DNA from: Clostridia bacterium | Lineage (GTDB): Bacteria; Bacillota; Clostridia; Oscillospirales; CAG-272 | Direction of reading: 5' to 3' | Assembly: GCA_017461475.1 (NCBI GenBank) | Contig: JAFTXX010000003.1 | Coordinates: 43,171 to 107,170 of the forward strand | DNA length: 64,000 nt | In this document: in pieces, positions 27,526 through 64,000 of the stretch | How positions within the stretch are numbered: position 1 is the first letter of the stretch | How the letters are laid out: each line of letters begins with the position of its first letter | Program-made: the position numbers and the translations under genes | Notes under the pieces: generated by a model | Database searches by the model: none | What the model saw: only the letters and a program-made list of their open reading frames with translations | What the model was told of the DNA's origin: nothing

Positions 27526-27568
27526 CTGCTGTGGTAATTTTTAAAAATTACCGCAGCTTTTTTGTTTG
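27526..27568 (+). terminator. Intrinsic terminator (riboswitch expression platform)
   Basis: gctgtggtaattttt / aaaaattaccgcagc stem (one G-U pair) followed by ttttttg, 50 nt before the ATG at 27619. Confidence 0.75.
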
Positions 27569-27618
27569 TCTTTTGTGACTGTTTTGGTTCAAATTCAATT
27601 TTTCAAAGGAGAATTACA

Positions 27619-33156: not shown

Positions 33157-34716
33157 ATGAAGAAGATATTTTCACTCTTGCTGTGTCTGCTAATGTTTGT
33201 CAGCACGGTTTTACCTGCCTTTGCCGCGGAGAGTGACACAGTTTCCGACGTCGCGGCGTATGTATACAAAACTGTGGCTTCACCGCAGGTCGGCTCTGTC
33301 GGCGGTGAGTGGGCGGTGCTTGGACTTGCACGCGGCGGTGCGGATATCCCAAGCGAATACTATGCCGATTATTATGCAAACGTTGAGGCGTATGTAAAAG
33401 AGTGTAAAGGCGTTTTGCATACAAAGAAGTATACCGAGTATTCGCGCGTGATACTTGCGCTGACCGCAATAGGCAAAGACCCCTCAAATGTTGCTGGGTA
33501 TGATTTGATCGCACCGCTCGGCGACTTTGATAAAACTGTATGGCAGGGGGTAAACGGCGCGATATTTGCGCTGATTGCCCTTGACAGCGGCGATTATGAA
33601 AGTGACCTTCGCGAAAGGTATGTTGATTATATTTTGCAAAAACAACTCGCCGACGGCGGTTTTGCGCTCTCGGGCGAGAGTGCCGATGCCGATGTTACCG
33701 CTATGGCGCTGCAGGCGCTTGCAAAGTATAAAAATAACGCTGCGGTTAAAACAGCAATAGAAAAAGCACTCCTTTGCTTGTCCGAAATGCAAAACGCAAG
33801 CGGCGGTTTTTCAATCAGTGGAGAGGAAACCGCCGAGAGCGCGGCGCAGGTAACAGTCGCGCTTTGCGAGCTCGGTATTTCTCTTGACGATACACGCTTT
33901 GTCAAAAACGGCAATACCGTGCTTGACAATTTGATGACCTATTATGTCAATGGAGAGGGCTTTAGACATACGCATAGCGGCGGCACAAATCAGATGGCAA
34001 CAGAGCAATGCTTTTACGCGCTCGTTGCCGCCGAGCGTTTGGCAAGCGGCAAAAACAGCCTCTACTGCATGAGTGATGCGGCAAATCTTGTGGGTGACGC
34101 CGCAGGTCTTGCAGGCAAGCACGCCGATGTTAATGTAAAGCCGATAGTCGCCGTAAAAACATTTGCAGACATCAAAGGTCACAAAAATCAATCAGCAATA
34201 GAGGCGCTCGCGTCAAGAAAAATAATCAACGGCAAAAGCGATACATCGTTTGAACCAAGTGCAACGATGACACGCGCAGAGTTTGCAACGATAGTGGTAA
34301 ATGCACTCGGACTTCCTCGTCAAAGCAAAGCGGTGTTTGCGGATGTCACGGGCGGCGATTGGTACTACAGCTACATCAATACCGCGTATGCTTACGGCAT
34401 TATCAAGGGCGTATCAGACACCGAGTTTAACCCAGGCGGCACTATAACGCGCGAAGAAGCGGCAGTCATGGTAGCACGCGCGGCAAAGCTGTGCGGTATG
34501 GACACCGATTATACCGCGTATGAAGCGCGCAATATCCTTGCAGGATTTTCCGATTATGTAAAGGCGTCGGAATGGGCATATAGCTCGCTTGCATTTTGCT
34601 ATGATAAAGGCGTTTTGGACGACAGCGCCATGTCGATACAACCGAAAGCTGCCGTAACGCGCGGAGAGATCGCACAAATGCTTTACAATATGCTTTCGCT
34701 GGCAAAGCTTTTATAA
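33157..34716 (+). CDS. SLH-anchored protein with a prenyltransferase/squalene-oxidase-type alpha/alpha-toroid domain
   Basis: Signal peptide ..PAFAAE. Repeats of the type GGEWAVLGLARGG, QGVNGAIFALIALD, QLADGGFALSG, QNASGGFSISG. Three SLH repeats (FADIKGH.., FADVTGGDWYY.., FSDYVKASEWAY..). Confidence 0.8.
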   Translation: MKKIFSLLLCLLMFVSTVLPAFAAESDTVSDVAAYVYKTVASPQVGSVGGEWAVLGLARGGADIPSEYYADYYANVEAYVKECKGVLHTKKYTEYSRVILALTAIGKDPSNVAGYDLIAPLGDFDKTVWQGVNGAIFALIALDSGDYESDLRERYVDYILQKQLADGGFALSGESADADVTAMALQALAKYKNNAAVKTAIEKALLCLSEMQNASGGFSISGEETAESAAQVTVALCELGISLDDTRFVKNGNTVLDNLMTYYVNGEGFRHTHSGGTNQMATEQCFYALVAAERLASGKNSLYCMSDAANLVGDAAGLAGKHADVNVKPIVAVKTFADIKGHKNQSAIEALASRKIINGKSDTSFEPSATMTRAEFATIVVNALGLPRQSKAVFADVTGGDWYYSYINTAYAYGIIKGVSDTEFNPGGTITREEAAVMVARAAKLCGMDTDYTAYEARNILAGFSDYVKASEWAYSSLAFCYDKGVLDDSAMSIQPKAAVTRGEIAQMLYNMLSLAKLL

Positions 34717-35370: not shown

Positions 35371-36250
35371 GTTTAAGACATACCATCCGATTGTTAACTT
35401 TGCTTATTTTGCATTCGTTATCGGATTTTCGATGTTTTATATGCACCCCGTATGCCTTGCCGTCACGCTTGCAAGCGGCTTTGTCTATTCGGTAATGCTC
35501 AAAGGCCCAAAAGCGATAAAAACAAATCTTTTGTATATGCTGCCGACAATGCTTATAACGGCGCTTATGAATCCTGCGTTTAACCACGAAGGCGTGACCA
35601 TCCTCACATATCTGCCGAGCGGCAATCCGCTCACGCTCGAGTCGATATTGTACGGTCTCTCGGCGGCGGTGATGATAGTCAGCGTGATGTGTCACTTTTC
35701 GTGCTACAACGCCGTTATGACAAGCGATAAATTCATCTATTTGTTCGGTAGAGTGATTCCGTCGCTGTCGCTGATACTTTCCATGACGCTTCGCTTTGTG
35801 CCAAAATTTACGTCACAGCTTAAAGTGGTAACAAACGCACAGAAATGCATCGGGCGAGATGTTTCAAACGGCTCGCTCTTGCAGAGAGCGAAAAACGGCA
35901 TTTCCATACTGTCTGTAATGGTTACATGGTCGCTTGAAAATGCGGTAGAGACAGCAGACAGCATGAAGTCGCGCGGCTACGGTATGCGTGGGCGCACCGC
36001 GTTTTCGATTTTTAGATTTGACAAGCGGGACGCGGCGGCGCTTCTTTGCATTTCGTTTTTGGGAGTTTATGTGCTTGTCGGCGGTGTTGCGGGCGGTATG
36101 GATTTCAGATATTTTCCGTCTGTAAAAGCCACAGAACCGACTATATATACTGTCAGCATTTTTGCGGCATATTTTGCGCTGTGCGCATTGCCGATAGCGG
36201 TTGAAGTCTTAGAGGTGAGAAAGTGGAAAGCTATAAGATCCAAAATTTAA
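35363..36250 (+). CDS. ECF transporter transmembrane (T) component, CbiQ/EcfT family
   Basis: ATGAATGA start/stop overlap with the previous gene. About 5-6 TM segments. C-terminal ..VETADSMKSRGYG.. (conserved Arg-Gly coupling-helix-like motif). Confidence 0.8.
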   Translation: MNEFKTYHPIVNFAYFAFVIGFSMFYMHPVCLAVTLASGFVYSVMLKGPKAIKTNLLYMLPTMLITALMNPAFNHEGVTILTYLPSGNPLTLESILYGLSAAVMIVSVMCHFSCYNAVMTSDKFIYLFGRVIPSLSLILSMTLRFVPKFTSQLKVVTNAQKCIGRDVSNGSLLQRAKNGISILSVMVTWSLENAVETADSMKSRGYGMRGRTAFSIFRFDKRDAAALLCISFLGVYVLVGGVAGGMDFRYFPSVKATEPTIYTVSIFAAYFALCALPIAVEVLEVRKWKAIRSKI

Positions 36251-38661
36251 GTTTTACATATCCCAACCGCGCGTGTGCGGCACTCGTTGACATAAACCTT
36301 ACTGTCAATGAGGGTGAATTTGTCACTCTGTGCGGCAAATCGGGTTGCGGAAAAACAACGCTTTTGCGCCTGCTCAAAACTTCGCTTGCGCCGCACGGCA
36401 AGCTTTGTGGCAGTATCGATTTCTGCGGTACATCACTTGCTGACACGGATGCAAGAACACAGGCTTCCAAGATAGGCTTTGTCATGCAGAGCCCCGATAA
36501 CCAAATCGTGACCGATAAGGTGTGGCACGAACTTGCGTTTGGACTTGAAAGCCTCGGATGCCCCACCCCCGAGATACGCACACGCGTGGCTGAGATGGCG
36601 TCATTTTTCGGAATCCAAACATGGTTTCACAAAAGCGTGACCGAACTTTCGGGCGGTCAAAAGCAGCTTTTAAATCTCGCTTCAGTCATGGTTATGCAGC
36701 CGTCAGTGCTTATTTTGGACGAGCCGACAAGCCAACTTGACCCCATAGCCGCCGAAGAGTTTTTGAAAACGCTCGAAAAAATAAATCGCGAACTTGGAAC
36801 AACGGTGATATTGTCTGAGCACCGCTTGGAAGATGCGTTCCCTATATCCGACCGCGTTGTCGTTATAGACAGCGGCAGAATAATTGCGGATGCCGAGCCG
36901 AAGAAGGTCTGCGAGATCTTAAAAACAACAAGGCACGATATGTATGCCGCTTTGCCCGCACCGATACGCATTTACGGCGCTGTTGAGACCGATGCTGCAT
37001 TTCCGCTCACGGTTCGTGAGGGTAGAGGGTGGTTTTTGAAATATGCCGAGACGCATACGCCGAAAACGGACGCAATATTGCCCGAAAACAAGCCGCTTGC
37101 GACCGAGACGGCAGTTGAAATAAATGACGCATGGTTCCGCTATGAAAAAGAACTTCCCGATGTCATAAAAGGTCTCAGCCTAAAGGTGCAAAAAGGGGAA
37201 CTGTTCGCCATCCTCGGCGGCAACGGCACGGGAAAAACCACTGCGCTTTCACTAATAAGCGGTCTTAACACGCCGTATCGCGGAAATGTGCTCATAAAAG
37301 GTAAGTCTGTCGCAGATATCGCCGACTTGTATAACGGTACTCTCGGCGTGCTTCCTCAAAATCCGCAGTGTTTGTTTACAAAAAAGACCGTGCGCGCAGA
37401 CCTTTTTGAAATGACAAATAACGCAGAGCATATTCAAAACATAGCAGAGATCTGCAAAATAGCAGAACTGCTCGACAGCCACCCATACGACCTTTCAGGT
37501 GGTGAACAGCAGCGCGCGGCACTTGCCAAAGTGCTTTTGCTTTCGCCGAGAATTTTGCTGCTCGACGAGCCGACCAAAGGTATGGATGCGCAGTTCAAGG
37601 CGTGCTTTGCGGATATTCTGCAGGATTTAAAGGCAAACGGCGTTACTGTCATAATGGTGTCGCACGATATTGAATTTTGTGCCGAGCATGCCGATAGATG
37701 CGCGATGTTTTTTGACGGCAATATTGCATCAGTAGGCACACCGCGTGAGTTCTTCGCAGGCAAAAACTTTTATACCACCTCTGCCAATCGAATCGTGCGC
37801 GAAAAACTGCCACGCGCCGTGACCGCCGAGGATGTGATACTCGCTCTCGGCGGCAAAGTTGAAAAAAGAGAGCGTGTCCCAAGGCGCATAATTCCGCATG
37901 AAAAAAAAGAGCAACCCCAAAAAACGTTCAAAGAGAATATCCAACAACCGCAAAACAACCGCCGCTTAACGGGGCGCACCCTCGCAGCAATGCTTTTGAT
38001 ACTGCTCGTAATACCGCTCACAATTTTTGTCGGCATTGTCTATCTCGGCGACAGAAAGTATTATTTCATAAGCCTGCTCATCATCCTTGAAACCATGATA
38101 CCGTTTTTCATGGTGTTTGAGGGCAGAAAACCCAAGGCACGCGAACTCGTCGTGATAAGCGTGCTGTGCGCTATAGGCGTAGCAGGCAGAGCCGCGTTTT
38201 TTATGTTGCCGCAGTTCAAACCCGTAACGGCGCTTGTCATTATAGCGGGTGTATGTTTCGGCGGAGAAACAGGATTCCTCGTCGGTGCGGTAACGGGCTT
38301 TGTCTCAAACTTCTTTTTCGGACAAGGTCCGTGGACTCCGTGGCAGATGTTCGCTTTCGGAATTATCGGCTTTATAGCGGGAGTGCTGTTCCGCAAAGGT
38401 ATCTTGCGCAAGACAAAAATATCGCTCTGTATCTTCGGATTTATTGCAACGCTCATAATTTACGGCGGAATAATGAATACCGCATCCGTGCTTATTTGGC
38501 AGGCAACACCCAAAGCCCAAATGTTCCTCTCAGCAAGCACTGTGGGACTGCCGTTCGACCTTATCCACGCAGCATCCACCGCCTTATTCCTATGGCTCGC
38601 CGCAGAGCCCATGATCGATAAGCTCGAAAGAATAAAAGCCAAGTACGGTTTGATAGAATAA
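36223..38661 (+). CDS. Fusion protein: two ECF-type ABC ATPase domains + a C-terminal multi-TM S-component-like domain
   Basis: GTG start overlapping the T gene. Domain 1: GKSGCGKTT, LSGGQKQLLNLA, ILDEPTSQLD. Domain 2: GGNGTGKTT, LSGGEQQRAALA, LLLDEPTKGMD. From ~nt 37930 there are six hydrophobic segments (..GQGPWTPWQMFAFGIIGF..). Confidence 0.85.
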   Translation: MESYKIQNLSFTYPNRACAALVDINLTVNEGEFVTLCGKSGCGKTTLLRLLKTSLAPHGKLCGSIDFCGTSLADTDARTQASKIGFVMQSPDNQIVTDKVWHELAFGLESLGCPTPEIRTRVAEMASFFGIQTWFHKSVTELSGGQKQLLNLASVMVMQPSVLILDEPTSQLDPIAAEEFLKTLEKINRELGTTVILSEHRLEDAFPISDRVVVIDSGRIIADAEPKKVCEILKTTRHDMYAALPAPIRIYGAVETDAAFPLTVREGRGWFLKYAETHTPKTDAILPENKPLATETAVEINDAWFRYEKELPDVIKGLSLKVQKGELFAILGGNGTGKTTALSLISGLNTPYRGNVLIKGKSVADIADLYNGTLGVLPQNPQCLFTKKTVRADLFEMTNNAEHIQNIAEICKIAELLDSHPYDLSGGEQQRAALAKVLLLSPRILLLDEPTKGMDAQFKACFADILQDLKANGVTVIMVSHDIEFCAEHADRCAMFFDGNIASVGTPREFFAGKNFYTTSANRIVREKLPRAVTAEDVILALGGKVEKRERVPRRIIPHEKKEQPQKTFKENIQQPQNNRRLTGRTLAAMLLILLVIPLTIFVGIVYLGDRKYYFISLLIILETMIPFFMVFEGRKPKARELVVISVLCAIGVAGRAAFFMLPQFKPVTALVIIAGVCFGGETGFLVGAVTGFVSNFFFGQGPWTPWQMFAFGIIGFIAGVLFRKGILRKTKISLCIFGFIATLIIYGGIMNTASVLIWQATPKAQMFLSASTVGLPFDLIHAASTALFLWLAAEPMIDKLERIKAKYGLIE

Positions 38662-52183: not shown

Positions 52184-53335
52184 ATGAAGGAAAGTTTTGA
52201 GACACGATGTATACACGGGGATCCTGATGCATCACTTCGCGACGCCAACAATGCTATCAGCTTTCCCATATATCAGACTGCCTCGTTTAGTCATATCAAA
52301 ACAGGGCATAACGACAGTGGATTTGATTATACGAGAGAATCAAATCCCACCCGCAGCAAGCTTGAAGAGGTTGTTTCTTCTTTGGAATCGGCTGTAGGTA
52401 CGGTGGCTTTTTCCTCCGGCATGGCGGCAATCAGCGCCTGTTTTGAGTTGTTTCGTCCCGGAGACCGCATCCTATGCTCAGAGGATTTGTACGGCGGTGC
52501 GATCCGTCTGCACAATTTGATCAGCGCAAAGAACGGTGTTACGGCGGACTATGTTGACACTTCTGATCTTAAGACTGTAGAAAAGTCCATTACGCCGGAC
52601 ACTAAGGCTATTTATGTGGAAACTCCCAGTAATCCTATGATGAATATTACGGATCTCAGGGGGTGCGCAAAGCTGGCGCATGATAACGGGCTTTTACTTA
52701 TTGTTGATAATACCTTTCTTTCACCGTATCTTCAAAATCCCTTGTTGTTGGGCGCGGATATCGTCATTCATAGCGGAAGCAAATTCCTTTCCGGACATAA
52801 CGATACCATATCCGGGTTTGTTTCAGCGGGGGATGCGAATCTCATAGATAAAATACGCCTTATTTCAAAAACAACAGGCGGTGTTCTTGCTCCGTTTGAC
52901 AGTTGGCTCGTCATGAGAGGAATCAAGACATTGGCGGTCCGTATGAAACAGCAGCAAGAAAGTGCGATGAAAATTGCCGACTGGTTGTTCGACTGTCCGC
53001 AGGTTACGAATGTCTATTATCCGGGGCTCAAGGATCATCCGGGATATGAGATCAACGCAAGTCAAGCAAAAGGCTCCGGAAGTATGATCTCGTTCCGTGT
53101 GGATAATGAAAAAACAGCGCTTAGGGTGCTTCAAAAGGTAAGGCTTGTTACCTTTGCGGAAAGTCTCGGCGGAGTGGAATCCCTTATTACCTATCCGGCA
53201 CTTCAAACTCATCCTGATGTACCGCAGAAAATGCGCGAACATCTCGGTATCACGGAAACGTTGCTGCGTCTCTCTGTAGGTTTGGAGAACGCTGACGATA
53301 TTATTTCTGATCTAAAGCAGGCACTGGAGGAGTGA
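52184..53335 (+). CDS. Cys/Met-metabolism PLP enzyme (cystathionine gamma-synthase / beta- or gamma-lyase family)
   Basis: TRCIHG..., PIYQTASF, YTRESNPTR, HSGSKFLSGHND (PLP Lys). 383 aa. Confidence 0.9.
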   Translation: MKESFETRCIHGDPDASLRDANNAISFPIYQTASFSHIKTGHNDSGFDYTRESNPTRSKLEEVVSSLESAVGTVAFSSGMAAISACFELFRPGDRILCSEDLYGGAIRLHNLISAKNGVTADYVDTSDLKTVEKSITPDTKAIYVETPSNPMMNITDLRGCAKLAHDNGLLLIVDNTFLSPYLQNPLLLGADIVIHSGSKFLSGHNDTISGFVSAGDANLIDKIRLISKTTGGVLAPFDSWLVMRGIKTLAVRMKQQQESAMKIADWLFDCPQVTNVYYPGLKDHPGYEINASQAKGSGSMISFRVDNEKTALRVLQKVRLVTFAESLGGVESLITYPALQTHPDVPQKMREHLGITETLLRLSVGLENADDIISDLKQALEE

Positions 53336-54516
53336 AAATGGTAACATATGATTTCGACAGTGTGATCGATCGCCGAAACACCAATAGCTTGAAATACGAT
53401 TTTGCAGTAGAACGTGGATGTCCGGCAGATGTCCTTCCTCTATGGGTAGCAGATATGGATTTCCGCGCGGCACAGTCGGTGCTTGATGCACTGCATACAG
53501 CGGTCGATCACGGTATCTTCGGATATAGTGACGTAAAAGAAGAATACTACAGAGCAGTTTCTTCGTGGTTCAAAAAACATTTTGATTGGCAAACAAAATC
53601 TGAATGGCTAATTAAGACTCCTGGTGTGGTATTTGCCTTGGCAATGGCAATTCGAGCTATGACAGAACCGGGAGACGGCATACTGATTCAAACTCCGGTG
53701 TATTACCCGTTCTACTCGGTCATAAAGGACAACAATCGCAAACTTGTGGAAAACCAACTGCTTTATCGAGACGGGCGGTATGAGATCAATTTCGATGACT
53801 TAGAAGAAAAGATACAGAAAGAGCGTGTCAAATTATTTATTCTTTGTTCCCCCCACAATCCGGTAGGCAGAGTTTGGACAAAGGAGGAGCTTCAAAGGAT
53901 CGGAACGATCTGTGAAACATACGGTGTGACCGTTGTGTCTGATGAGATCCATTGTGATTTTGCATTCCCGGAACATCCGCACACGACCTTTGCAAAAGCA
54001 TGTCCGAGACTGGAGGAATGTTCCATAGTCTGCACTGCTCCGAGCAAGACGTTCAATTTGGCAGGATTACAGGTTTCAAATATCTGGATTCCAAATGCTA
54101 AAATCAGACGAAAGATTCAAAATGAAATCGATCGCAGCGGATACTCTCAGCTTAATTCTCTCGGCTTAGTGGCGGCAAAAGCCGCATATGAAAGCGGCGA
54201 GGAGTGGCTTTTGCAATGCAAAGACTATCTGCGCGGAAATTTGAATTTTTTACGTTCTTTTTTGCAGGACAAGCTTCCCGAAATTAAGCTTGTGGAACCG
54301 GAAGGTACCTACTTTGCATGGCTTGACTGTTCGGGTCTGGGACTTGACCGCACAGAGCTCAATGACCTTATTGTTAATAAGGCAAAGCTTTGGCTTGATG
54401 CCGGACACATATTCGGGGAAGAAGCGTCAGCATTTCAGCGCGTTGTATTAGCTTGCCCGCGTAAAACACTGGAACAAGCGTTGATACAATTGGAAAAAGC
54501 AGTTCGGAATACTTAA
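53332..54516 (+). CDS. PatB/MalY-type aminotransferase-fold C-S lyase
   Basis: DRRNTNSLKY, LWVADMDF, CSPHNPVGRVW, SDEIHCDF, SKTFNLAGL. Confidence 0.85.
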   Translation: MKMVTYDFDSVIDRRNTNSLKYDFAVERGCPADVLPLWVADMDFRAAQSVLDALHTAVDHGIFGYSDVKEEYYRAVSSWFKKHFDWQTKSEWLIKTPGVVFALAMAIRAMTEPGDGILIQTPVYYPFYSVIKDNNRKLVENQLLYRDGRYEINFDDLEEKIQKERVKLFILCSPHNPVGRVWTKEELQRIGTICETYGVTVVSDEIHCDFAFPEHPHTTFAKACPRLEECSIVCTAPSKTFNLAGLQVSNIWIPNAKIRRKIQNEIDRSGYSQLNSLGLVAAKAAYESGEEWLLQCKDYLRGNLNFLRSFLQDKLPEIKLVEPEGTYFAWLDCSGLGLDRTELNDLIVNKAKLWLDAGHIFGEEASAFQRVVLACPRKTLEQALIQLEKAVRNT

Positions 54517-54734: not shown

Positions 54735-54767
54735 CAAAAAGTCGTCCGTGAGGACGACTTTTTTTAG
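54735..54767. terminator. Bidirectional terminator between convergent genes
   Basis: aaaaagtcgtcc-gtga-ggacgacttttttt. Confidence 0.8.
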
Positions 54768-55786
54768 AGCCATTTTGCGATTTCGAGGAGTTGTTTTCTC
54801 GAGGAAACGCCGAGTTTTCCATAGAGGTTCTTATTGTGGAATTTGAGCGTGTTTTCTTTGATACCCATGGCGGCGAGCACATCCTTTGTGCCTTTACCCT
54901 CGGTATAGAGGTCATAGATTGCCTTTTCGGTAGGAGTAAGGGTTTCAAGCCCCTCGATAAAACGGCGGCTCTGCTCAATAAGTTCTTTTGGGAGCGGATC
55001 CTTTTGGGGCGGTTCATTTACAAAATGCGGTGAGAACAGTTTGTCACCCTCCTGAATCATAAGACAGAGTCCGAGCAGGAAAATTTCGCTGATAATATAG
55101 GAAACCGACAAAATTTCAAAGTCTATTTTCACAAGTTGTTCAAGCATCCAGACGCACAGGTTTACAAAAACGGCTGCTGCAAGGAAAACGGCTTGAATAT
55201 TGGTTGCAACGAGTTTTTTACGCATTGCGTAGACAATTACCGCAACGATAGCGGCAAAGTATCCGAGCAAAAACACAAGATAGATAGGATGCAATACACC
55301 GTAGACCTTCTTAAGAACCGTAACTCCGTCTATGATCTGCAGAGAAACTTCCTTATAATAAATGTCAAGATACCCGGGGGAGGCGGCGATAAGAAAAACG
55401 AAAATGCTGACACATACAAGCAAAACGGGTAAGGAACGCTTGTAATGGATGTGGCTGACCTTGATAATCGCCATCAGCATTGACAAGGGTAAAAACACGC
55501 TTCCGAGATAGGAGATGCGGTTTGCCATGAGCGCCGCAGAAAGGGTAGGTGCGAGCGAAAGTGTGAGATAGCCGATATTGACAACAATGGTTGATGCAAA
55601 TAAAAGCATCATCCATTTTTCTTTTTTGCGGATAAGCGAGCAGTAACCGATGAGCATAATAACAGACAGAACAGCGGTTGCTATGTATGCTGCCGACATT
55701 GTCAGCGCCTTGTCACCCATGGGAGAACATCCCGAAAGTAAAAGCATGGCAGACAGTGCGGTAGCAGTGAGTAAAAATTTCTTCAT
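54764..55786 (-). CDS. Membrane-embedded LuxR-family transcriptional regulator
   Basis: AAGGAGAG RBS before the ATG at 55786. About 7-8 hydrophobic segments. The C-terminal LuxR/GerE HTH is LTPTEKAIYDLYTEGKGTKDVLAAMGIKENTLKFHNKNLYGKLGVSSRKQL. Confidence 0.8.
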   Translation of the reverse strand: MKKFLLTATALSAMLLLSGCSPMGDKALTMSAAYIATAVLSVIMLIGYCSLIRKKEKWMMLLFASTIVVNIGYLTLSLAPTLSAALMANRISYLGSVFLPLSMLMAIIKVSHIHYKRSLPVLLVCVSIFVFLIAASPGYLDIYYKEVSLQIIDGVTVLKKVYGVLHPIYLVFLLGYFAAIVAVIVYAMRKKLVATNIQAVFLAAAVFVNLCVWMLEQLVKIDFEILSVSYIISEIFLLGLCLMIQEGDKLFSPHFVNEPPQKDPLPKELIEQSRRFIEGLETLTPTEKAIYDLYTEGKGTKDVLAAMGIKENTLKFHNKNLYGKLGVSSRKQLLEIAKWL

Positions 55787-55904
55787 ATTGCTCTCCTTTT
55801 TATGTGCAACCCCACTTCCCACACTATTTCCCACACTTTTGCGTACAAAAATAGTGTCATCCCACACTTTTATTTTGTGTTTGTGTGGCGACTTTGGGTA
55901 AGTT

Positions 55905-55926
55905 TGTAATTTAAAATTAAATTACA
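55905..55926. promoter_or_regulatory. Perfect 10-bp inverted repeat (candidate operator) in the divergent intergenic region
   Basis: tgtaatttaa-aa-ttaaattaca. Confidence 0.35.
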
Positions 55927-56203
55927 GGGTATAGAAGGAGGGTATATAACCTTGCCTTGTAAAAAGGGGTACCCCGTTTGCATTCTAATGCAAATGTCTC
56001 TGTGGCGCGCCAACGAAACAGAGACCGCCCCTATAATTTTATATCTCAGGCTTGACGAATTTTCCGTATTTTTCAAAATCGACGGTGTTTAGCCGTCGAG
56101 GAAAATTCATAAAGCGGCGGAACTGGAAGTGTATTTATGCTGAGAGTCTAGTGCCGCTATTATTATAACATAGATATAACTTTAAGTCAACGGAGGAAAA
56201 GTT

Positions 56204-59200
56204 ATGAAAAGACGTATTGCGTATGTTTTTGCGATTGTACTGCTTGCGCTTGTGTTTTCGTTTGCTGTTTTTGCATCGGACGACGGCGCAAACTGTATGT
56301 ACTGCGGCGCATATCGCTACGGCGATTGGCTTTGCGACTGCGGACTTTGCAGTATAGAAGCCGAGCCTGCGGATTGCTGGGCAGCTACGCACTGTTGGGA
56401 ATGCGGCGCTTGCTTTAACACAATGACAAAGTTTTGTGTCGAGTGCCATTATTGTGAAGAATGCTACGTAGCAGAGGGTACGCACTGCCTTGGTTGCGAG
56501 GAGTGCCACATTTCCGACTATCAGGATGAGCTTTGCGGCGAGTGCTGGTTTTGCGCTGACTGCATGGGCGGACTTTGCGACGGTTGCGGCTTTTGTGCGG
56601 GATGCCAGGAGCTTGACGGTGGCGTGCATTGCCCCGAGTGTGGAGGTTGCTACGGCGAGTACGGTGCATGCGAGGAGGATGGAGCAGAGCATTGCAAGGA
56701 GTGCTGCCTTATCTGTGAGCAGTGCGAGCGATGCGTTTTTGACGACGGACTTGAACTTTGCTCGGAATGTAACTTTTGCGAGGAGTGTTGCAGACATGCG
56801 GCACAGAGCGAGGGCTGCGACTGCGGCGAATACTGCGTGGAGTCGAGCGATTGGTACGACCACGTCTGCCTTAATTGCGGAACTCCTTACTGTCAGATAG
56901 ACCAGTGTGACCTGTGCGAGCTTTGCCTTGACTGTTGCGAGTCGAACTCCGATTGCTCGGAGGGACTTTGCGTCATGGACGATGAATATGATTATCATTT
57001 CTGCGAGGATTGCGGAATTTGCTTCCACGAGGTTGACGCTTGCGAGGATTGCGGAGACGCGGGCGAGCTTCGCTGCGAGGATTGCTCCGCCGCTATTACC
57101 GAGGACGCGGGCTGCGACTGCAGCGATATGTGCTTTAACATGGCGGGGTTTGACACCCACGTAGCAACCGAGCACAAGGGCGCGGACGGCAGCCATACCG
57201 CAAAGCCGCAAAAAACATGGACTTACGACATGAACTATCACTGGAGGGATTGCTCTCTTTGCAGTGAAGCGGCGCATATAACCGTAAAGGAAAAACACGC
57301 ATTTGACTATTTCGGCATTTGCGCTGTGTGCGGATTTGACTCCAAAACCAAAATTGTTATTCTCCGTCAGCCGAATAGCCGCATAGTAGAGGTGTCGGAT
57401 AATGATGCGGGAGCAGGCGAGCCGTATAACATCGAGGACAATCAGGTTTCGTTTTCGGTAGCGGCGGTGGGGACGGGCACGCTTACCTACCAATGGTACG
57501 AAAAGCGCGGCATGTCCGAGTGGAAACCTATGAAAGACGAAATGAACTACTTTGTCGCAAACAGTAAGTTCTACACGGTCTACGGCACAAAAACAGACAG
57601 ACTCACGATTGCGGTTCCCGTGGACGTGTGCTATACCGAATACGCATACCGTGTGGTGATCACCGATGCCGAGGGCAACACGGTGACGAGTGCGGCGGCG
57701 CAGATCGCCTCCAAGCACATCTACAAAAAGGCAATTGCACATAAGGGTGCGCTTATCGGCACGATCCGTCAGTCAAACAAGAGCGATAACATCGGCGTTT
57801 ATGCAACAAACGGTCATTACATCCTTTGTCAGGGCGACGGTTGCGAAGCCGAAAAGATTGTTTCTCACAACTACGGCAAGGGCGTGCGTGAATACGTCGA
57901 TAATACCGATTACAGCGTTTGGACCGAGTTTGTGTGCAAGGATTGCGGATTTGTAAATTATATCAAAAACCATGACCACTACTTCTACGATCCCGAAAGC
58001 GGAGAGTGCGAGGTGGACTATACATACAAAAATTCAGTAAATCACCGCTTAAAGTGCCTCTATCCTGATTGTGAAAAGACAACGCTTGAAGCACACGTCT
58101 TTATGCCATGGGGCAATCACGGCACACCGCACACTGCAAGCGGCGGTGTCGGCATTGCGTTTAAGGAATGCGCACTTTGTGCTTATTCTTACACGAAAAA
58201 GCCCCAGTATTTTGACTTTGTCAAGGAGGAGAACATTACTACCGACTGGACAAAGGCAAATGACCTCGTGTATGTACGCTACGGATTTGCAAGCGGAGAT
58301 ATTTACACAGTCGGCGACAGCATGTACATCACCTTTGCACCGACTGTTACGGATAAGAGAGACCACATAAAAATGACCAATCCGAAGTGTGTCGGCTGGA
58401 AGGTATTTTACAGTGGTAACAATGTTTCGGATATAGACGTTACAAGTGCCTGCACCTTTGAAAAGCTAGAGGGTGAGGCAAAATGGGTAGTGAAGATTTC
58501 AAAATTCCTGACCCATACGGGCGGCGGCACATTTGCCTTCGTTCCTACTATAGATACAAAAGAGTGTGAGCATATAAATGGCTCAAGGATTTTCGGTGCA
58601 TACAAGCCGATCTGTACGACCGACGGCTACACGGGTGACCGCAAGTGTGTGGACTGCGGCTACGTTGTGCAGTACGGTGAAGCCATACCGGGCGGTGAAG
58701 AGCATGCAGGAGAGCTTAAACTTGTAAGCGGTACTTCGAGAAATGGCACTTGTGAGCAGCGTGGCTACGAGGGTGACTACAAGTGTTCCCACTGCGGTGC
58801 AAAAGTGAAGGGCAAGACCACGCCTAAGGTGCACACGGGCAAAACCACCGTGAAAAATGCAAAGAAAGCAACCTGCACATCCTTTGGCTACACGGGCGAC
58901 ACATATTGCTCCTGCGGAGCCATGATAAAAGAGGGCGACCTTATTGTTCCCACGCACAGCAATATTGTAACACTTAACTACAAAGAGGCAACCTGTAAAA
59001 ATGACGGCTACAGCGGTGATATGCAGTGCAAGGATTGCGGTATCTTCGTCCGCTACGGTCACACTGTCAAGGGCGGCGAGCATGCATGGTCAGACTACAA
59101 GGTGCTTGATGCGGTAAATCACAAGTGTTATTGCAAGGTAAGCGGCTGTAACGAGATCATGACCGAGGCGCATACCGATGCGGACAGAAATCTCGTCTGC

Positions 59201-60217
59201 GACACCTGCGGCTATTCCTGGGGCGAGGATGGAGAGTATATTTCGAGTATCGTGTTCAACATCGATCCGCCCGAAATCGGTGCAAAGGCCGATTATACCA
59301 AGTTTGACGGTAAGCGTTTTGCAAGCGACAATTCGGGACTGAGCGCATCGAGATACAAGAACGGCATTGCATGGGAGAACACAACAAGCGGCAAATTCCT
59401 GCTCCCCGGCGGCACAGAGGTGTTCGCGGAGGGCAACGTTTATAAAATCTATATTTCTTTCCGTACCAATGGCGACTATAAGTTTGCAACTAATGTTACC
59501 GCAACAATTAACGGCACTACAGCAAAGACAGAGTATATCAGTGAGCAGTTTGTAAATGTTGAATATACATTCCCGAAGCTCGACCACAAGCATGATTACA
59601 CCTTGATGCGAAACGAAAACTCACATCACTACGAGTGTCTTGTTTGCAGTACAGTCAAGGATGCAGGCAGTCATACATTTGACGCAAACGGACGTTGCAA
59701 GACCTGCGGATACAGTAAAAATACGGGTAATCCCTTTACCGATATAAAGGCAAGCGACTACTTCTTCGATGCGGTAATGTGGGCAAAGGATACGGGACTT
59801 ACCGTTGGTACTACTGCAACCACGTTCTCGCCATACGACACCTGCACCAGAGCACATGGAATTACATTCCTTTGGCGTGCGGCGGGTAAACCTATAGCAA
59901 AGAATAAGGTAAATCCGTTTACCGATGTAAAAACCACCGACTACTATTACGATGCGGTGCTTTGGGGTGTTGAAGAGGGAATTATAGTAGGTACATCGAA
60001 GACAACTTTTACACCTCACCAGACCTGTTCAAGTGCCCACATTATCACAATGCTGTACCGAGCAATGAAGATAGGCAATAACGGCTGGTACGAGGAAGCA
60101 AAGTCTTGGGCAAATGGAGAGGGACTTCTTAACGGAACGAAGTTTGTCGTTTCACCCGATGAGCCTTGTCCGAGAGCAGGAATTGCATATTTCCTCTATA
60201 TGTTCTACGAAAAATAA
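56204..60217 (+). CDS. 1,337-aa secreted protein: extreme Cys-rich acidic N-terminal region, Ig-like YQWY module, Cys4 mini-modules, C-terminal SLH-like triple anchor
   Basis: GGAGGA RBS and signal peptide MKRRIAYVFAIVLLALVFSFAVFA. Dense CxxC arrays. C-terminus NPFTDIKASDYFFDAVMWA.. / NPFTDVKTTDYYYDAVLWG.. / WYEEAKSWANGEGLLNG. Confidence 0.85.
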   Translation: MKRRIAYVFAIVLLALVFSFAVFASDDGANCMYCGAYRYGDWLCDCGLCSIEAEPADCWAATHCWECGACFNTMTKFCVECHYCEECYVAEGTHCLGCEECHISDYQDELCGECWFCADCMGGLCDGCGFCAGCQELDGGVHCPECGGCYGEYGACEEDGAEHCKECCLICEQCERCVFDDGLELCSECNFCEECCRHAAQSEGCDCGEYCVESSDWYDHVCLNCGTPYCQIDQCDLCELCLDCCESNSDCSEGLCVMDDEYDYHFCEDCGICFHEVDACEDCGDAGELRCEDCSAAITEDAGCDCSDMCFNMAGFDTHVATEHKGADGSHTAKPQKTWTYDMNYHWRDCSLCSEAAHITVKEKHAFDYFGICAVCGFDSKTKIVILRQPNSRIVEVSDNDAGAGEPYNIEDNQVSFSVAAVGTGTLTYQWYEKRGMSEWKPMKDEMNYFVANSKFYTVYGTKTDRLTIAVPVDVCYTEYAYRVVITDAEGNTVTSAAAQIASKHIYKKAIAHKGALIGTIRQSNKSDNIGVYATNGHYILCQGDGCEAEKIVSHNYGKGVREYVDNTDYSVWTEFVCKDCGFVNYIKNHDHYFYDPESGECEVDYTYKNSVNHRLKCLYPDCEKTTLEAHVFMPWGNHGTPHTASGGVGIAFKECALCAYSYTKKPQYFDFVKEENITTDWTKANDLVYVRYGFASGDIYTVGDSMYITFAPTVTDKRDHIKMTNPKCVGWKVFYSGNNVSDIDVTSACTFEKLEGEAKWVVKISKFLTHTGGGTFAFVPTIDTKECEHINGSRIFGAYKPICTTDGYTGDRKCVDCGYVVQYGEAIPGGEEHAGELKLVSGTSRNGTCEQRGYEGDYKCSHCGAKVKGKTTPKVHTGKTTVKNAKKATCTSFGYTGDTYCSCGAMIKEGDLIVPTHSNIVTLNYKEATCKNDGYSGDMQCKDCGIFVRYGHTVKGGEHAWSDYKVLDAVNHKCYCKVSGCNEIMTEAHTDADRNLVCDTCGYSWGEDGEYISSIVFNIDPPEIGAKADYTKFDGKRFASDNSGLSASRYKNGIAWENTTSGKFLLPGGTEVFAEGNVYKIYISFRTNGDYKFATNVTATINGTTAKTEYISEQFVNVEYTFPKLDHKHDYTLMRNENSHHYECLVCSTVKDAGSHTFDANGRCKTCGYSKNTGNPFTDIKASDYFFDAVMWAKDTGLTVGTTATTFSPYDTCTRAHGITFLWRAAGKPIAKNKVNPFTDVKTTDYYYDAVLWGVEEGIIVGTSKTTFTPHQTCSSAHIITMLYRAMKIGNNGWYEEAKSWANGEGLLNGTKFVVSPDEPCPRAGIAYFLYMFYEK

Positions 60218-60240
60218 ATCAATTAAAAGGGAGCAAAATT

Positions 60241-61740
60241 ATGAAAAAACTATTGGCTTTTGTATTTGTAGCAATGCTGGTACTCGGCATGGCAGTGACC
60301 GCATTTGCGGCATGCGAGCATGAATTTTTGGCAATGAGAAACATGACATCTCACTATGAGGAATGTCAGAAGTGCTTCGAGCTCCGTAACGCAGGCAGTC
60401 ACACCTTTGAAAATGGCAAATGCACCGTTTGCGACTATGAGGAACCGATTATAAATCCCTTTACTGACGTACCAAACGATGCATGGTATGCGGCAGATGT
60501 TTTGAGCGCGGTTGCAACAGGTCTTATCACCGGTAAGACTACAGATAAGTATGCACCAAATGACAACCTCACCTATGCCGAAGCTGTAAAGCTTGCGGCT
60601 TGCATGAATGAGAAATATACAAAAGGCGAGGTCACGCTTGAAATCGGCGCCCCTTGGTATCAGACATATGTTGACTACTGCAAGAATAACAACATTATCC
60701 GCACCGAGTACAACTGGAACGACTTTGCAACAAGAGTGGGTTATATGTATATTTTTGCATACGCACTTCCCGAGGAGGCGTATGAGCCGATCAACACGAT
60801 CGAGGACGGCACTATACCCGACGTTCCGATGGACTCTCCCTATGCAGACATCGTTTACAAACTGTACAGAGCAGGTATTGTAACGGGCGTTGACGCACAG
60901 CACAACTGCAATCCCACGGCTAATATCACGCGCGCGGAGGTTGCGGTCATCGTTGCAAGAATGATGGACCCATCAAAGCGTATCAGCTTTGAAATGAAGC
61001 ACGTCTATGATTCTGTGCTGGATGATGGCTCGGATATCGAGATCGGCGGCGATCCTGCTATCGTAGTTGGCGGTGGAGATCAGGTAGACTATGACGTGAA
61101 CACGGGGGATTTCGTACTCGATGATACCAAGCTTCCGCTAAAGATCACTGCCGATCCCGAGTCTTATGAGGCAGAGGATTACGGCGAAAAAGCTGAGCTT
61201 AAGGTAGTTACAGACGGAGGCAAGCCATACTTTACCTACGAGTGGTACTACAATGCGTACAGAAACGAAAAGGTGAAAATTGAAAACGGCGACTTTGTAA
61301 GCGGCGCAGATACCGACACGCTCACTATTTTGGTTGAAAAGGACAACACTCTTCTCGGCTCTAAAATTTTCTGCAAGGTTACGGATGCAAACGGCGTAGA
61401 GGTAACCTCGAATAGCGCCTCGGTTTACGGACTGTTCTCTATGTCGGCTGAGGATGTGACGGTTGTTACAGCGACCAAGGAATATACTGTTGTCGGAACC
61501 GTGGCAGACGGAGTTCTCCGAAAGGGCGACAAGATTTCCGTGGAGATGAACGGCAAAATCATTTCTATCGGAACTGTCAAAGACATACAGATGTTTAACA
61601 AGTCTCTTGACGAGGCAGTAAAGGGTGACCGTGTGGGCGTTACGTTCGAGCTGACCGACGGTGTAAGACCGCAGTCGGGAAGCATAGTAATCAAGTACAA
61701 CGACGCACATGTTATTGACACAAGCGATATCGTAAACTAA
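60241..61740 (+). CDS. Secreted protein: Cys4/His mini-module + SLH-like anchor + Ig-like module + C-terminal EF-Tu domain-2-like barrel
   Basis: AAGGGAG RBS before the ATG at 60241 and signal peptide MKKLLAFVFVAMLVLGMAVTAFA. See findings for the motifs. Confidence 0.85.
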   Translation: MKKLLAFVFVAMLVLGMAVTAFAACEHEFLAMRNMTSHYEECQKCFELRNAGSHTFENGKCTVCDYEEPIINPFTDVPNDAWYAADVLSAVATGLITGKTTDKYAPNDNLTYAEAVKLAACMNEKYTKGEVTLEIGAPWYQTYVDYCKNNNIIRTEYNWNDFATRVGYMYIFAYALPEEAYEPINTIEDGTIPDVPMDSPYADIVYKLYRAGIVTGVDAQHNCNPTANITRAEVAVIVARMMDPSKRISFEMKHVYDSVLDDGSDIEIGGDPAIVVGGGDQVDYDVNTGDFVLDDTKLPLKITADPESYEAEDYGEKAELKVVTDGGKPYFTYEWYYNAYRNEKVKIENGDFVSGADTDTLTILVEKDNTLLGSKIFCKVTDANGVEVTSNSASVYGLFSMSAEDVTVVTATKEYTVVGTVADGVLRKGDKISVEMNGKIISIGTVKDIQMFNKSLDEAVKGDRVGVTFELTDGVRPQSGSIVIKYNDAHVIDTSDIVN

Positions 61741-61771
61741 AATGTTCCACTTTGCCGAAAGGAGCAAAATT

Positions 61772-64000
61772 ATGAAAAAACTGTTGATTGTCATACTTGC
61801 TGTTATGCTGGTATTCGGCATGGCAGTGACCTCATTTGCCGATGAAGAGATCCGCGGCGAGGGCGAGCATGACCATAAGCTGATGAACGGTGCGGATATG
61901 GACTACCACTTTGAAGAATGTCAGGTGTGCTTTGAACGTTTTAACGTGAAAGACCATATCTTTAAAGACGGTATATGCACATTCTGCGGATATTCCGAGC
62001 CGAAAAATCCGTTTACAGACGTAAGCGAATCCGCATGGTATTACAGCGACGTTATTACCGCTTATGTGGATAAGCTTATCAACGGTAAGACCGAAACTAA
62101 ATTTGAGCCCGACCTAAATATCACATATGTCGAAGCGATAAAACTTGCGGCATGTATGCACCAGAAATATACCACGGGCAAGGTAACTCTCACAGTTGGC
62201 AATCCTTGGTATGCGCCTTATCTTGAGTATTGCATCGAAAACGGCATCTTGCGCGAGGAGCACGGCTATGACCTAAGCGCTCAGGCAACAAGACAGGGTT
62301 ATATGCGTATATTTGCATATTCACTTCCTGCAGAGGCACTCGAAGAGATAAACTTTGTTGCCGAAAACGCAATCCCTGATGTAAAGAACGATCCTGCAAT
62401 CTACAAGCTTTACCGCGCAGGTATCGTAGGTGGAGTGGATGCGGCACGCAATTGCAATCCTAATGCAAATATCAAGCGCAGTGAGGTTGCGGCGGTTCTC
62501 ACAAGAATGATGAACAAGGCGGCAAGAATAGAGTTTACTCTCGGGGAAAAGCCTGTCGAGACCGAGCCGCTTCGCTTTACAGGCGCGTCATCCTATTCCT
62601 ACTACGGACAGTACGTATTCTCGGTTACCGCTGAGGGCGGCAAGGCTCCACACATATATACTTGGTACTGCAAGGACGGCGGCAAAGAAAGCGTTATTGA
62701 ACACGGTGCTTTTGCAATACTTGAAACCGAGAACGTGGGTAAGAATGACGGAATCATCGCATTCCCGTTCAAGGAAGACAACCCCTACCTCGGCAAGCAG
62801 TTAAAACTTGTAGTTACAGATGCAAACGGTGAAAGCATTGATACGGGGTATACCGATATTCCTGCATACTTCGAGGTGGAGGCACCCGAAGAGGAAGCTC
62901 CTACAGTAACATACGAAAAGCTTACAATAACAAAGCAACCCGAATATGTTGCAAAGGCTGAGGACGGTATGCTTATCTACTATGAGGTATCGGTAGATGG
63001 CGGCAAGGCGCCGTACAACTATGAGTGGTTCTATTACACGGGAACTAAAAACCTGACTGCTCCTATTGAAAACGGCGAGTTTGCACTTGTAGACGAGGGT
63101 AAACTCGGACTTGGATTTTATCTTGACAGCCCGTATATTTCAAAGCGTTTTGCTTGCAAAGTTACCGATGCAAACGGCGAAAGCGTTGTAACAAATATGA
63201 TAAAGATGCCCGATGCTCCATTTACTATGGAGATCGAGAGCATAGACAAAATTTCTCTCGGTACAATTGTGGTTGGCAGAGTTAAAACGGGCACTCTGCT
63301 GGTTGGCGAGTCGGTTGCCGTTTGCTATGACGACAAGTACACCTACGGTATAGGCAAGGTGGAAAAAATCGAAATGTTCAATAAGGCGCTTGACAAGGCG
63401 GAGGCAAACGACCGCGTGGGTATTCTTCTGCCCGATTTCGGCACGGTCACTACACGTGATAGCCTTATCAGAACATACGACGAAATGGGACTTATCGGCG
63501 ATAGTAAAAACATTGTTATTAAAAAGCCTGTGAGAGCCGGCATCAGCTATACGCCGAGAGGAGATATCGGTGACTGGACAACAGTGACTGCTTATGCCCA
63601 CGGCGGCAAAGAACCCTATACCTATGAGTGGCAGATAATGATACTTGACGGACAGTATATTTCGCTGAAGGACTTTACAAATTCTTCGGCATGGGCAAAC
63701 GGATTTGATAAAGACACTTTGAATTTGCAGGTACGCGAGGAGCAGTATACAAAGGGCTATGCCTTCCGTTGCATGGTGACTGATGCAAACGGCTCTGTTG
63801 CGTATACGGATGCGAAAATTCCCACACCGTATACGCTGATTGTCGGTAAGCATCCCGAGAGCGTGTATGCAAACTACGGTGAAAAGGTTGAATTTACCGT
63901 AAAGGCATACGGTTCGCGTGACAGCGAACTCAAGTATCAATGGCAGTATACTTATGACGGTGCCAAGACATTTAGGGACATTCTACCTACCGACTCATGG
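61772..64000 (+). CDS. Paralogous secreted protein (3'-truncated by the window edge) with the same N-terminal architecture, several GGK.PY.YEW...VTDANG modules and an internal EF-Tu domain-2-like barrel
   Basis: AAAGGAG RBS before the ATG at 61772. I translated the frame by hand to nt 64000 without meeting a stop. It is absent from the ORF track because it has no stop in the window. Confidence 0.8.
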   Translation, partial: MKKLLIVILAVMLVFGMAVTSFADEEIRGEGEHDHKLMNGADMDYHFEECQVCFERFNVKDHIFKDGICTFCGYSEPKNPFTDVSESAWYYSDVITAYVDKLINGKTETKFEPDLNITYVEAIKLAACMHQKYTTGKVTLTVGNPWYAPYLEYCIENGILREEHGYDLSAQATRQGYMRIFAYSLPAEALEEINFVAENAIPDVKNDPAIYKLYRAGIVGGVDAARNCNPNANIKRSEVAAVLTRMMNKAARIEFTLGEKPVETEPLRFTGASSYSYYGQYVFSVTAEGGKAPHIYTWYCKDGGKESVIEHGAFAILETENVGKNDGIIAFPFKEDNPYLGKQLKLVVTDANGESIDTGYTDIPAYFEVEAPEEEAPTVTYEKLTITKQPEYVAKAEDGMLIYYEVSVDGGKAPYNYEWFYYTGTKNLTAPIENGEFALVDEGKLGLGFYLDSPYISKRFACKVTDANGESVVTNMIKMPDAPFTMEIESIDKISLGTIVVGRVKTGTLLVGESVAVCYDDKYTYGIGKVEKIEMFNKALDKAEANDRVGILLPDFGTVTTRDSLIRTYDEMGLIGDSKNIVIKKPVRAGISYTPRGDIGDWTTVTAYAHGGKEPYTYEWQIMILDGQYISLKDFTNSSAWANGFDKDTLNLQVREEQYTKGYAFRCMVTDANGSVAYTDAKIPTPYTLIVGKHPESVYANYGEKVEFTVKAYGSRDSELKYQWQYTYDGAKTFRDILPTDSW

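Follow-up and report, generated by a model that had tools for sequence, protein, structure and literature searches.

A cysteine-dense, putatively metal-binding domain at the N-terminus of surface proteins from gut Clostridia

A 64,000-nucleotide stretch of Clostridia bacterium DNA (contig JAFTXX010000003.1, positions 43,171 to 107,170; referred to here as the window and numbered from its first letter) encodes a 1337-residue surface protein with S-layer homology (SLH) repeats, in which the signal peptide is followed by a block of densely packed Cys residues. This block represents a real, conserved and exported domain family that is attached to extracellular anchors, lies at the distal end of wall-anchored proteins and shows a ligand-like pattern of substitution. 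We consider it moderately probable that the block, which is acidic, forms an extracellular head domain held by many structural zinc ions and free of disulfides. The identity of the metal, its stoichiometry, the role as head or adhesin and the mode of regulation are what we infer beyond the family itself.

The Cys-rich block (residues 31–310) contains 62 Cys in 280 residues (22.1%), arranged in 32 overlapping CxxC motifs (7 of the form CxxCG), with 16 CxxCxxC and 6 CxxCxxCxxC motifs and three CC doublets. It is strongly acidic, with 66 D+E versus 6 K+R and a pI of 4.05, and includes 26 aromatic residues (13 Y, 8 F, 5 W) as well as 10 His. The 18 other genes in the window have an average Cys content of 1.4% (86/6161), against which the density of the block corresponds to a binomial P of ~5e-54. 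The complete protein contains 103 Cys, and 42 of the 102 Cys-to-Cys gaps have a spacing of 3. These values match exactly those of the original prediction, made for positions 56288-57140 (residues 29–312), which had counted 62 Cys in 280 residues (~22%) and about 7 CxxCG; every Cys string quoted there is found in the translation. It had been unable to assign a family and, indeed, no curated family covers the block, with no match in Pfam or NCBIfam even at E<=1. A PDB sequence search with the single 1337-residue protein retrieved SLH matches only, and the protein is deposited as 'S-layer homology domain-containing protein [Clostridia bacterium]' (MBQ8836127.1). Hydropathy and inspection reveal the hallmarks of Sec export, namely a basic n-region (MKRR), a 19-residue hydrophobic core and an AxA-like cleavage site (VFA/SDD). 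Export on the basis of the signal peptide, as originally proposed, is thus borne out by inspection, and the N-terminal hydrophobic stretch is kept in nearly all family members.

An identical 1337-residue protein is present on 8 separately assembled metagenome contigs, and five species-level orthologues (64–71% identity; loci L008 and L011-L014) retain the full architecture. No DNA tandem repeats or long direct repeats were found at the gene, and we reject such repeats as the origin of the block. The assembly chimera that had been named as grounds for refutation is excluded by these observations. Overlapping the Cys-rich coding region on the other strand is a 535-residue open reading frame (ORF), 56135..57742 (-). 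Homology is confined to the + frame, which marks the opposite-strand frame as a shadow ORF, the product of biased TGC/GAG-rich codon usage. This overlap is all that speaks for an artefact, be it a chimera, a shadow ORF or a mis-read cytoplasmic zinc-finger protein. Given the eight identical copies, hundreds of homologues conserved in the + frame, the lack of DNA repeats and a signal peptide with extracellular anchors conserved family-wide, we regard the chance of an artefact as negligible.

A word-indexed search with residues 25–345 yielded 56 relatives, of which 34 were used to build a family profile that also spanned the signal peptide and the module following the block. When searched against 1.84 billion cluster representatives (50% identity), this profile detected 1917 proteins at E<=1e-3, of which 487 reached E<=1e-10 and 160 reached E<=1e-30. 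Nearly all of the best 150 matches possess their own N-terminal Cys-dense block of ~300 residues (up to ~750), preceded by a hydrophobic signal sequence, in proteins of mostly 1000–2900 residues. A scan of GTDB species genomes using a 41-residue core alignment and a single 10-residue pattern found 32 species that carry the block, all of them gut or rumen Clostridia (Oscillospiraceae, Ruminococcus, Acutalibacteraceae, Tyzzerella, Acetatifactor) and including the isolates Pseudoruminococcus massiliensis, Flintibacter porci and Hominimerdicola aceti. The family member of Vescimonas fastidiosa is annotated 'hypothetical protein', and our literature searches brought up no account of a comparable bacterial domain. 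The premise of the original prediction that dense CxxC arrays are atypical of the surface proteins of anaerobes does not hold, with 1917 clusters and 32 GTDB species carrying such an N-terminal module; it is also countered by the Cys/His zinc modules of the wall-anchored Thomasclavelia ramosa IgA protease (IgAse; PMC12237041, PMC12415215).

Pfam analysis of 30 diverse full-length members identified only extracellular modules, all downstream of the block, and nothing on the block itself. These include SLH, dockerin and Flg_new (Flg_new/InlB-B; 7 members each), in addition to BspA-LRR, CBM_X2, fn3, Big_3 and choline-binding repeats. The C-terminal anchor is variously SLH, dockerin or a transmembrane segment with a basic tail. 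Tethering of the family proteins at the C-terminus places the block at the distal end, and it constitutes a mobile N-terminal extracellular domain. In an extreme case from Oscillospiraceae bacterium SIG575 (locus L016, SVOW01000002.1, ORF containing 5422-5541), a 1221-residue protein with 270 Cys (22%), 139 CxxC and a dockerin-like C-terminal end, Cys-rich units fill almost the whole protein; similar expansions of 700–750 residues occur in P0091, P0103, P0183 and P0199.

Across 30 proteins of 24–45% identity, 59 Cys and 6 His columns in the region of residues 31–330 are at least 80% conserved. A further two His (H94 and H163) are 70–77% conserved, and 4 of 7 His immediately precede a CxxC. Profile-profile self-comparison of family sub-alignments with hhalign shows three homologous repeats of ~45 residues (E, F and G; probability 97–99%) with the pattern CxxCxxCxxCC ... 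C ... C[VF] ... H[VF]CxxCG, and a weaker mutual similarity among the N-terminal CxxCxxC(xxC) units. As a control for Cys bias, the E/F/G repeats were compared with the CxxC-containing zinc-binding domain (ZBD)-like modules found elsewhere in the protein, and gave probabilities below 5%.

AlphaFold2 models computed with the family alignment have a mean pLDDT (predicted local distance difference test score) of 83.1 for residues 25–345, with a predicted TM-score (pTM) of 0.48 that fits an elongated shape, and reach a pLDDT of 91.0 and pTM of 0.71 for residues 160–330. DSSP assigns a recurring 'E------E HHHH' unit to the model, consisting of a bridge, a six-residue loop, a second bridge and a short helix, centred on CxxCxxC. 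In the predicted structure, this unit is shaped like a zinc knuckle that leads into a helix beginning with the ligands that come next. Foldseek found no match at E<=0.001 for either the full-block model (PDB and a viral set) or the model of residues 160–330 (PDB). The best PDB match has an E of 0.31, with TM <=0.41 on the target, and the weak PDB matches are mainly RING, LIM, PHD and RBR zinc folds. In the viral set, the best match (E of 4.6e-3, TM 0.10) is a pithovirus protein of unknown function, and the matches are mostly uncharacterized, with HNH, endonuclease VII (EndoVII) and RING folds among those annotated. The models thus provide a confidently predicted fold that has no solved counterpart.

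The manner in which the conserved Cys residues are replaced bears directly on their chemistry. His can stand in for Cys as a metal ligand, not in a disulfide. We examined 60 conserved Cys columns in a hidden Markov model (HMM) of the block, using a non-redundant set of 63 domains (<=80% identity). His ranks second among the replacements, accounting for 19 of the 174 substituted cells (10.9%), compared with 1.9% in ordinary columns (5.6-fold; binomial p=1.3e-9). The swaps are in register, as in CEDC to CEEH and CDDCGEC to CPFCKEH, are not slips onto adjacent conserved His, and repeat at the same columns in several representative sequences. In four sequences (P0174, P0185, P0186, P0161) Cys is replaced by His together at HMM columns 93 and 132, which map to C101 and C114 by consensus register. 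Judged from sequence, this pair would fit the conversion of one Cys4 site to Cys2His2, with shared ancestry as an alternative. The number of Cys per block shows no parity, with 33 odd and 30 even counts among the 63 blocks, as delimited crudely. A disulfide-bonded ectodomain would be expected to have an even number of Cys, to lose them in pairs and never to replace them by His; the counts and the His replacements of the block do not agree with this. Previous work found that anaerobic Gram-positives have no even-Cys signature of a disulfide system (PMC2823432). Taken together, the swaps, parity, knuckle geometry, conserved His, zinc-fold echoes, ZBD precedent and anaerobic hosts make metal ligation the probable chemistry, in preference to disulfides. 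With 66 conserved ligands, the block would therefore hold ~16 tetrahedral sites if none is shared, and zinc is the default choice for Cys4 or Cys3His sites that assemble outside the cell after Sec export.

Known Cys-rich families were considered in turn. The block contains 0 CxxCxxCxxxCP and 0 CxxCxGxG motifs, and no Pfam match to Fer4, other iron-sulfur (Fe-S), DnaJ_CXXCXGXG, metallothionein or VSP families was obtained for it; we rejected a 4Fe-4S ferredoxin on the missing CxxCxxCxxxCP and Fer4 match, and a DnaJ Cys-rich domain on the missing CxxCxGxG and Pfam match. A multihaem c-type cytochrome was rejected in view of just two CxxCH motifs (at 78 and 98), the His of which is kept in 13% and 7% of relatives. 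A metallothionein does not agree with 26 aromatics, 10 His and a predicted structure of pLDDT 83–91 with helices and bridges, in addition to the lack of a Pfam match. RING, LIM or PHD identity was likewise rejected (best Foldseek E=0.31, TM <=0.41, no Pfam match), the resemblance being local only. A Giardia VSP was discounted on the Pfam result and on a C-terminus formed by SLH repeats ending ...MFYEK, with no CRGKA tail. Finally, hhalign gave 0.4–4% for the repeats or the N-terminal half against the ZBD-like modules, and the block (residues 31–324) was not identified as an IgAse ZBD.

Among the other explanations, a disulfide-knotted stalk was one of the roles originally suggested. According to this, ~31 disulfides form after export and stiffen the N-terminal domain, in the manner of ectodomains of the EGF-like, furin-like or Giardia VSP-like kind. 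The even number of Cys in the window protein (62) and the very strong conservation of their positions are compatible with it, and the sole literature analogues found are eukaryotic CxxC-rich surface proteins (Giardia VSP/HCMP, Entamoeba Igl). We nevertheless consider it unlikely. In-register Cys-to-His swaps are enriched 5.6-fold, odd counts (33) are as frequent as even ones (30), and a disulfide inside any of the 32 CxxC would be strained and redox-active rather than structural. Furthermore, when ORFs within +/-8 kb of the gene were clustered for the window and 32 further loci, the conserved neighbours did not include Dsb, thioredoxin or CcdA genes. The hosts are strict gut anaerobes, of a group without the even-Cys signature (PMC2823432), and in T. 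ramosa IgAse no disulfides were noted despite 24 Cys (PMC12237041, PMC12415215). The prediction's metal coordination is thus the role favoured, with the stalk disfavoured by the swaps and the lack of parity. A surface metal sink, capturing or storing zinc against host nutritional immunity or buffering Cu/Cd/Hg in the manner of metallothioneins, appears to us about equally unlikely. It would account for 22% Cys, three CC doublets and the acidic charge (66 D+E vs 6 K+R), and for high-copy display on the wall via the SLH anchor. Against this stand 26 aromatics, 10 His and a confident, ordered AlphaFold2 structure, unlike metallothioneins, with no metallothionein match in Pfam; all ligand positions are kept at 25% identity, suggesting a fixed fold. 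No Zur, CsoR, ArsR or Zn/Cu transporter is conserved in the 33 neighbourhoods, where the conserved neighbours are LuxR-type sensors. Sequestration as the purpose of metal binding, also raised originally, keeps this small share of probability, but has no conserved metal-homeostasis genes nearby to accompany it.

Redox functions are less likely still. Zinc-thiolate redox switches are known, and strict anaerobes that meet mucosal oxygen gradients with very many exposed thiols could use those thiols, free or masked by zinc, as a sacrificial oxidant scavenger, as a redox switch or for exchangeable disulfide bonding to mucins or other Cys-rich host targets. Positional conservation and the confident fold argue instead for buried ligands, no peroxiredoxin or thioredoxin partner is conserved nearby, and such surface thiol chemistry is accordingly improbable. 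CxxCxxC loops wrap cubane clusters in ferredoxins, and the 16 CxxCxxC and 6 CxxCxxCxxC of the block, in an anoxic and sulfidic habitat, could be thought to bind [4Fe-4S]-type clusters that conduct electrons extracellularly. Tat is required for the export of cofactor-loaded Fe-S proteins, whereas the signal here is of the Sec type: 3 of the 144 full-length members have a Tat-like motif, and the closest orthologues begin MKKLGR... without RR and do not display the Tat pattern [ST]RRxFLK. With no CxxCxxCxxxCP, no Fer4 or other Fe-S Pfam match, no ferredoxin-fold Foldseek match (the only Fe-S protein listed is NcsA, E=6.9), and no Fe-S assembly or respiratory genes conserved nearby, and with His beside knuckles and Cys-to-His swaps that fit zinc better, we give this array very little credence. 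The ferredoxin-like or redox option of the original prediction is disfavoured by the motif and Pfam results and by the lack of a conserved Tat signal. A broader variant, only marginally more credible than the Fe-S conduit, is a redox-active extracellular metal-thiolate or Fe-S array that loads spontaneously in the anoxic, sulfidic gut lumen, acting for strict anaerobes as an electron conduit or as an oxygen-sensing and scavenging surface layer whose expression is tuned by membrane LuxR-type sensors. We also rejected a substrate of radical-SAM/RiPP-type modification, no such enzyme being conserved nearby.

Several points weigh against a structural multi-zinc head domain. AlphaFold2 places no metals, and it is we who infer the grouping of Cys into four-ligand sites. 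The parity test rests on a crude definition of the block, and the Cys-to-His swaps could partly reflect shared ancestry, with several occurring in related sequences. At 22% Cys with three CC doublets, the block lies between zinc fingers and metallothioneins, and thiolate-bridged clusters or Cu, Fe or Ni are possible. The head or adhesin role is derived from topology only, with no match that suggests a ligand, and the family is known from sequence and predicted models alone.

Under the multi-zinc reading, the acidic, Cys-dense N-terminal ~300 residues would fold after Sec export around ~16 tetrahedral metal sites, most likely occupied by Zn(II) as Cys4 or Cys3His, to produce knuckle-plus-helix units strung into an elongated chain free of disulfides. 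Such a domain would occupy the distal end of a long stalk, built from Ig-like and IgA-protease-type zinc-binding modules and tethered to the cell wall by the C-terminal SLH repeats. Zinc would be structural, taking in the anoxic gut the role that disulfides have in eukaryotic Cys-rich ectodomains. The domain may then form the exposed head of a periscope-like surface protein and is probably a binding surface, with expression probably under the adjacent membrane-bound LuxR-type regulator. If true, ~1900 clusters (50% identity) make up a large unnamed domain family, with members in the cultured human-gut genera Vescimonas, Flintibacter, Pseudoruminococcus and Hominimerdicola. Gut Clostridia would make their extracellular modules rigid by dense zinc-thiolate sites in place of the disulfides of eukaryotes and aerobes, and the pLDDT 91 model without a PDB counterpart would represent a new fold. 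Surface-protein folding and display would be tied to luminal zinc, which the host manipulates. The block would mark the exposed tip of many abundant, uncharacterised commensal surface proteins, and would be an obvious candidate for the recognition of hosts, glycans or other cells. For comparison, the exported proteins of aerobic Firmicutes are largely devoid of Cys, averaging 0.5 each (PMC2823432), versus 103 in the window protein.

Table 1. Positions of the Cys-rich protein, its modules and the adjacent genes in the window.
Feature	Residues	Position	Strand	Basis
SLH-anchored surface protein, whole gene	1–1337	56204..60217	+	ORF, 1337 residues; NCBI MBQ8836127.1
Sec-type signal peptide	1–24	56204..56275	+	Hydropathy and sequence inspection
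Cys-rich block	31–310	56294..57133	+	62 Cys, 32 CxxC, pI 4.05; no Pfam/NCBIfam match
Three homologous ~45-residue Cys-rich repeats	E 186–234, F 235–279, G 280–324	56759..57175	+	hhalign
ZBD-like His/Cys module 1	~325–385	57176..57358	+	Pattern H..W..D..HW..C..C...H.F...C..CG
ZBD-like modules 2 and 3	~530–665 (530–600, 600–665)	57791..58198	+	hhalign
TCxxxGYxGDxxCxxCG repeats	~786–1005	58559..59218	+	Sequence, family consensus, hhalign
ZBD-like module 4	~1125–1172	59576..59719	+	hhalign; same module opens next gene
SLH cell-wall anchor	~1175–1337	59726..60214	+	Pfam PF00395, PDB SLH matches
Membrane regulator, HisKA_7TM and GerE/LuxR helix-turn-helix, 367 residues		54764..55867	-	Pfam; divergent from Cys-rich gene
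SLH protein with EF-Tu-domain-2-like barrel		60238..61740	+	Pfam; co-oriented, conserved in orthologue loci
Second SLH + EF-Tu-D2 + Ig_3 protein		61742..64000	+	Pfam; runs off window end; gene calls in L037, L038

The remainder of the protein is itself rich in Cys/His modules. The family profile matches the T. ramosa IgA protease (PDB 9qa6, chain 9qa6_A; E=1.2e-8) via ZBD-like module 1, and the matched residues 865–969 and 1053–1135 lie within or overlap ZBD1 and ZBD2 (CTD2/CTD4). These two domains have model-based His2Cys2 or Cys3His structural zinc sites and possibly a new fold, and a Cys3+Glu zinc site of the same protease was confirmed by anomalous diffraction (PMC12237041, PMC12415215). 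The ZBDs are termed 'periscope' modules in one of these two reports, both from 2025. Comparison of the ZBD-like modules of the window protein using hhalign gave 91.8% for modules 1 and 2, 96.1% for 1 and 3, 98.9% for 2 and 3, and 89.2% for 1 and 4. Residues C578, C581, C618, C623, C656, C659, H538, H555, H614 and H631 are conserved in modules 2 and 3. Repeats T1 and T2 of the TCxxxGYxGDxxCxxCG pattern are related at 96.6% (hhalign), and module 4 (HKHDYTLMRNENSHHYECLVCS...GRCKTCGY) resembles by eye residues 26–70 of the downstream protein. At the C-terminus, the proposed SLH-like triple anchor is confirmed as far as SLH is concerned (PF00395, E=1.1e-15, 57.7 bits versus a cut-off of 20.8), in 2 stretches; alignments to the SLH domains of Sap/SbsB in the PDB cover residues 1172–1291, which makes a third repeat likely.

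GerE/LuxR regulators with membrane sensor parts adjoin the Cys-rich gene in 22 of the 33 loci, distributed over three subclades. Divergent HisKA_7TM-GerE homologues are found upstream in 9 loci. In a second subclade (8 loci) the gene is accompanied by a co-oriented HisKA_7TM protein, a HATPase_c kinase, a receiver-GerE regulator and a 128-residue protein, and in a third (5 loci) by membrane GerE proteins with an SBP_bac_8 protein. Example positions are 54764-55867 (-) in the window, 3253-7350 in L017, 5207-6982 in L021 and 4023-7338 in L026. The three kinds of regulator suggest that dedicated, signal-dependent control was kept or re-invented, and the divergent regulator of the window likely controls the Cys-rich gene. 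The window shares only three clusters with other loci, comprising the Cys-rich, 7TM-LuxR and SLH/EF-Tu-D2 genes, and across all 33 neighbourhoods no Dsb/thioredoxin, metal transporter, metalloregulator, Fe-S assembly or radical-SAM gene is conserved. The Cys/Met-metabolism genes at 52184-54516 do not recur in other loci and were rejected as a functional link. No riboswitch or other RNA element was detected at E<=1 in the 5' region (55700-56400).

Homologues of the first downstream SLH gene were located by tblastn in L008, L011-L014 and L033 and as gene calls in L037 and L038. Both downstream SLH proteins, which are secreted and also follow the Cys-rich gene in orthologue loci, as well as one at 11421-14288 in L011, combine a match to EF-Tu domain 2 (PF03144; E 4e-8 to 2e-6) with SprB/Ig_3, and the cell surface is an unusual context for this translation-factor beta-barrel. 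At least 6 SLH proteins are encoded in the 64-kb window, and SLH anchoring is therefore the organism's main surface-display route. One of them, at 110-3832 (+), carries a GH43 glycoside hydrolase domain. Another, of 1843 residues (27562-33093 (+); DUF4430, Flg_new, Big_9), is directly preceded by a cobalamin riboswitch (RF00174, 59.8 bits, 27201-27425 (+)) and followed by an SLH protein with a prenyltransferase-like alpha-alpha toroid (33157-34716 (+)) and a fused ECF transporter ATPase/S-component (36223-38661 (+)). This arrangement has the appearance of a Gram-positive locus for surface capture and uptake under B12 control. A Gut-1 small RNA (RF01706; 53.8 bits versus a gathering score of 50) at 18556-18625 (+) is consistent with a gut-metagenome origin.

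Structural Cys/His zinc sites are already known, and extracellular ones were noted in gut Firmicutes in 2025 for the IgAse ZBDs. What is new in the block is that it is non-homologous to the ZBDs, has a several-fold higher ligand density, lacks a solved structural counterpart and belongs to a very large unannotated family. IgAse ZBD1 and ZBD2 are nonetheless the closest parallel: in both cases, extracellular Cys/His modules occur in a wall-anchored protein of a gut Firmicute. The window protein contains four modules related to these ZBDs, one by direct profile match and three by hhalign, which would share with them tetrahedral Zn sites of predicted structural role and a lack of disulfides. The Cys-rich block itself differs in having mostly Cys4-type as opposed to His2Cys2 sites, 3–4 times the ligand density, short helices and an N-terminal position instead of being part of the stalk, and is non-homologous (<5%). 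The zinc sites of the IgAse ZBDs are themselves predicted only.

More distant parallels can be drawn with intracellular zinc folds and with other Cys-rich proteins. RING, LIM, PHD and RBR domains share with the block the CxxC knuckle, a short helix that opens with CxxC and consecutive, interleaved sites. They differ in being intracellular, with 2 Zn per 40–60 residues compared with ~16 inferred sites in one continuous extracellular array, and have no sequence homology to the block, the structural matches being non-significant (E>0.3, TM about 0.4 at most). The Giardia VSP/HCMP and Entamoeba Igl proteins resemble the block in being extracellular and tethered to membrane or wall, with tens of CXXC, and in coating the surface of an anaerobic gut organism, but are eukaryotic and have no detectable homology to it. 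Their Cys content is ~11–12%, as opposed to 22% in the block, and whether they contain metal or disulfides is itself debated. Metallothioneins have in common with the block a high Cys content, CC/CxC doublets and the ability to take up many thiophilic metal ions, but lack its 26 aromatics, 10 His, ordered predicted fold, ligands kept at 25% identity, export and wall anchoring. The CxxCxxC runs of 2x[4Fe-4S] ferredoxins and the repeated CxxC knuckles of the DnaJ Cys-rich domain are likewise echoed in the block, which is set apart from both by 0 CxxCxxCxxxCP, 0 CxxCxGxG, the lack of a Pfam match and its export via Sec.

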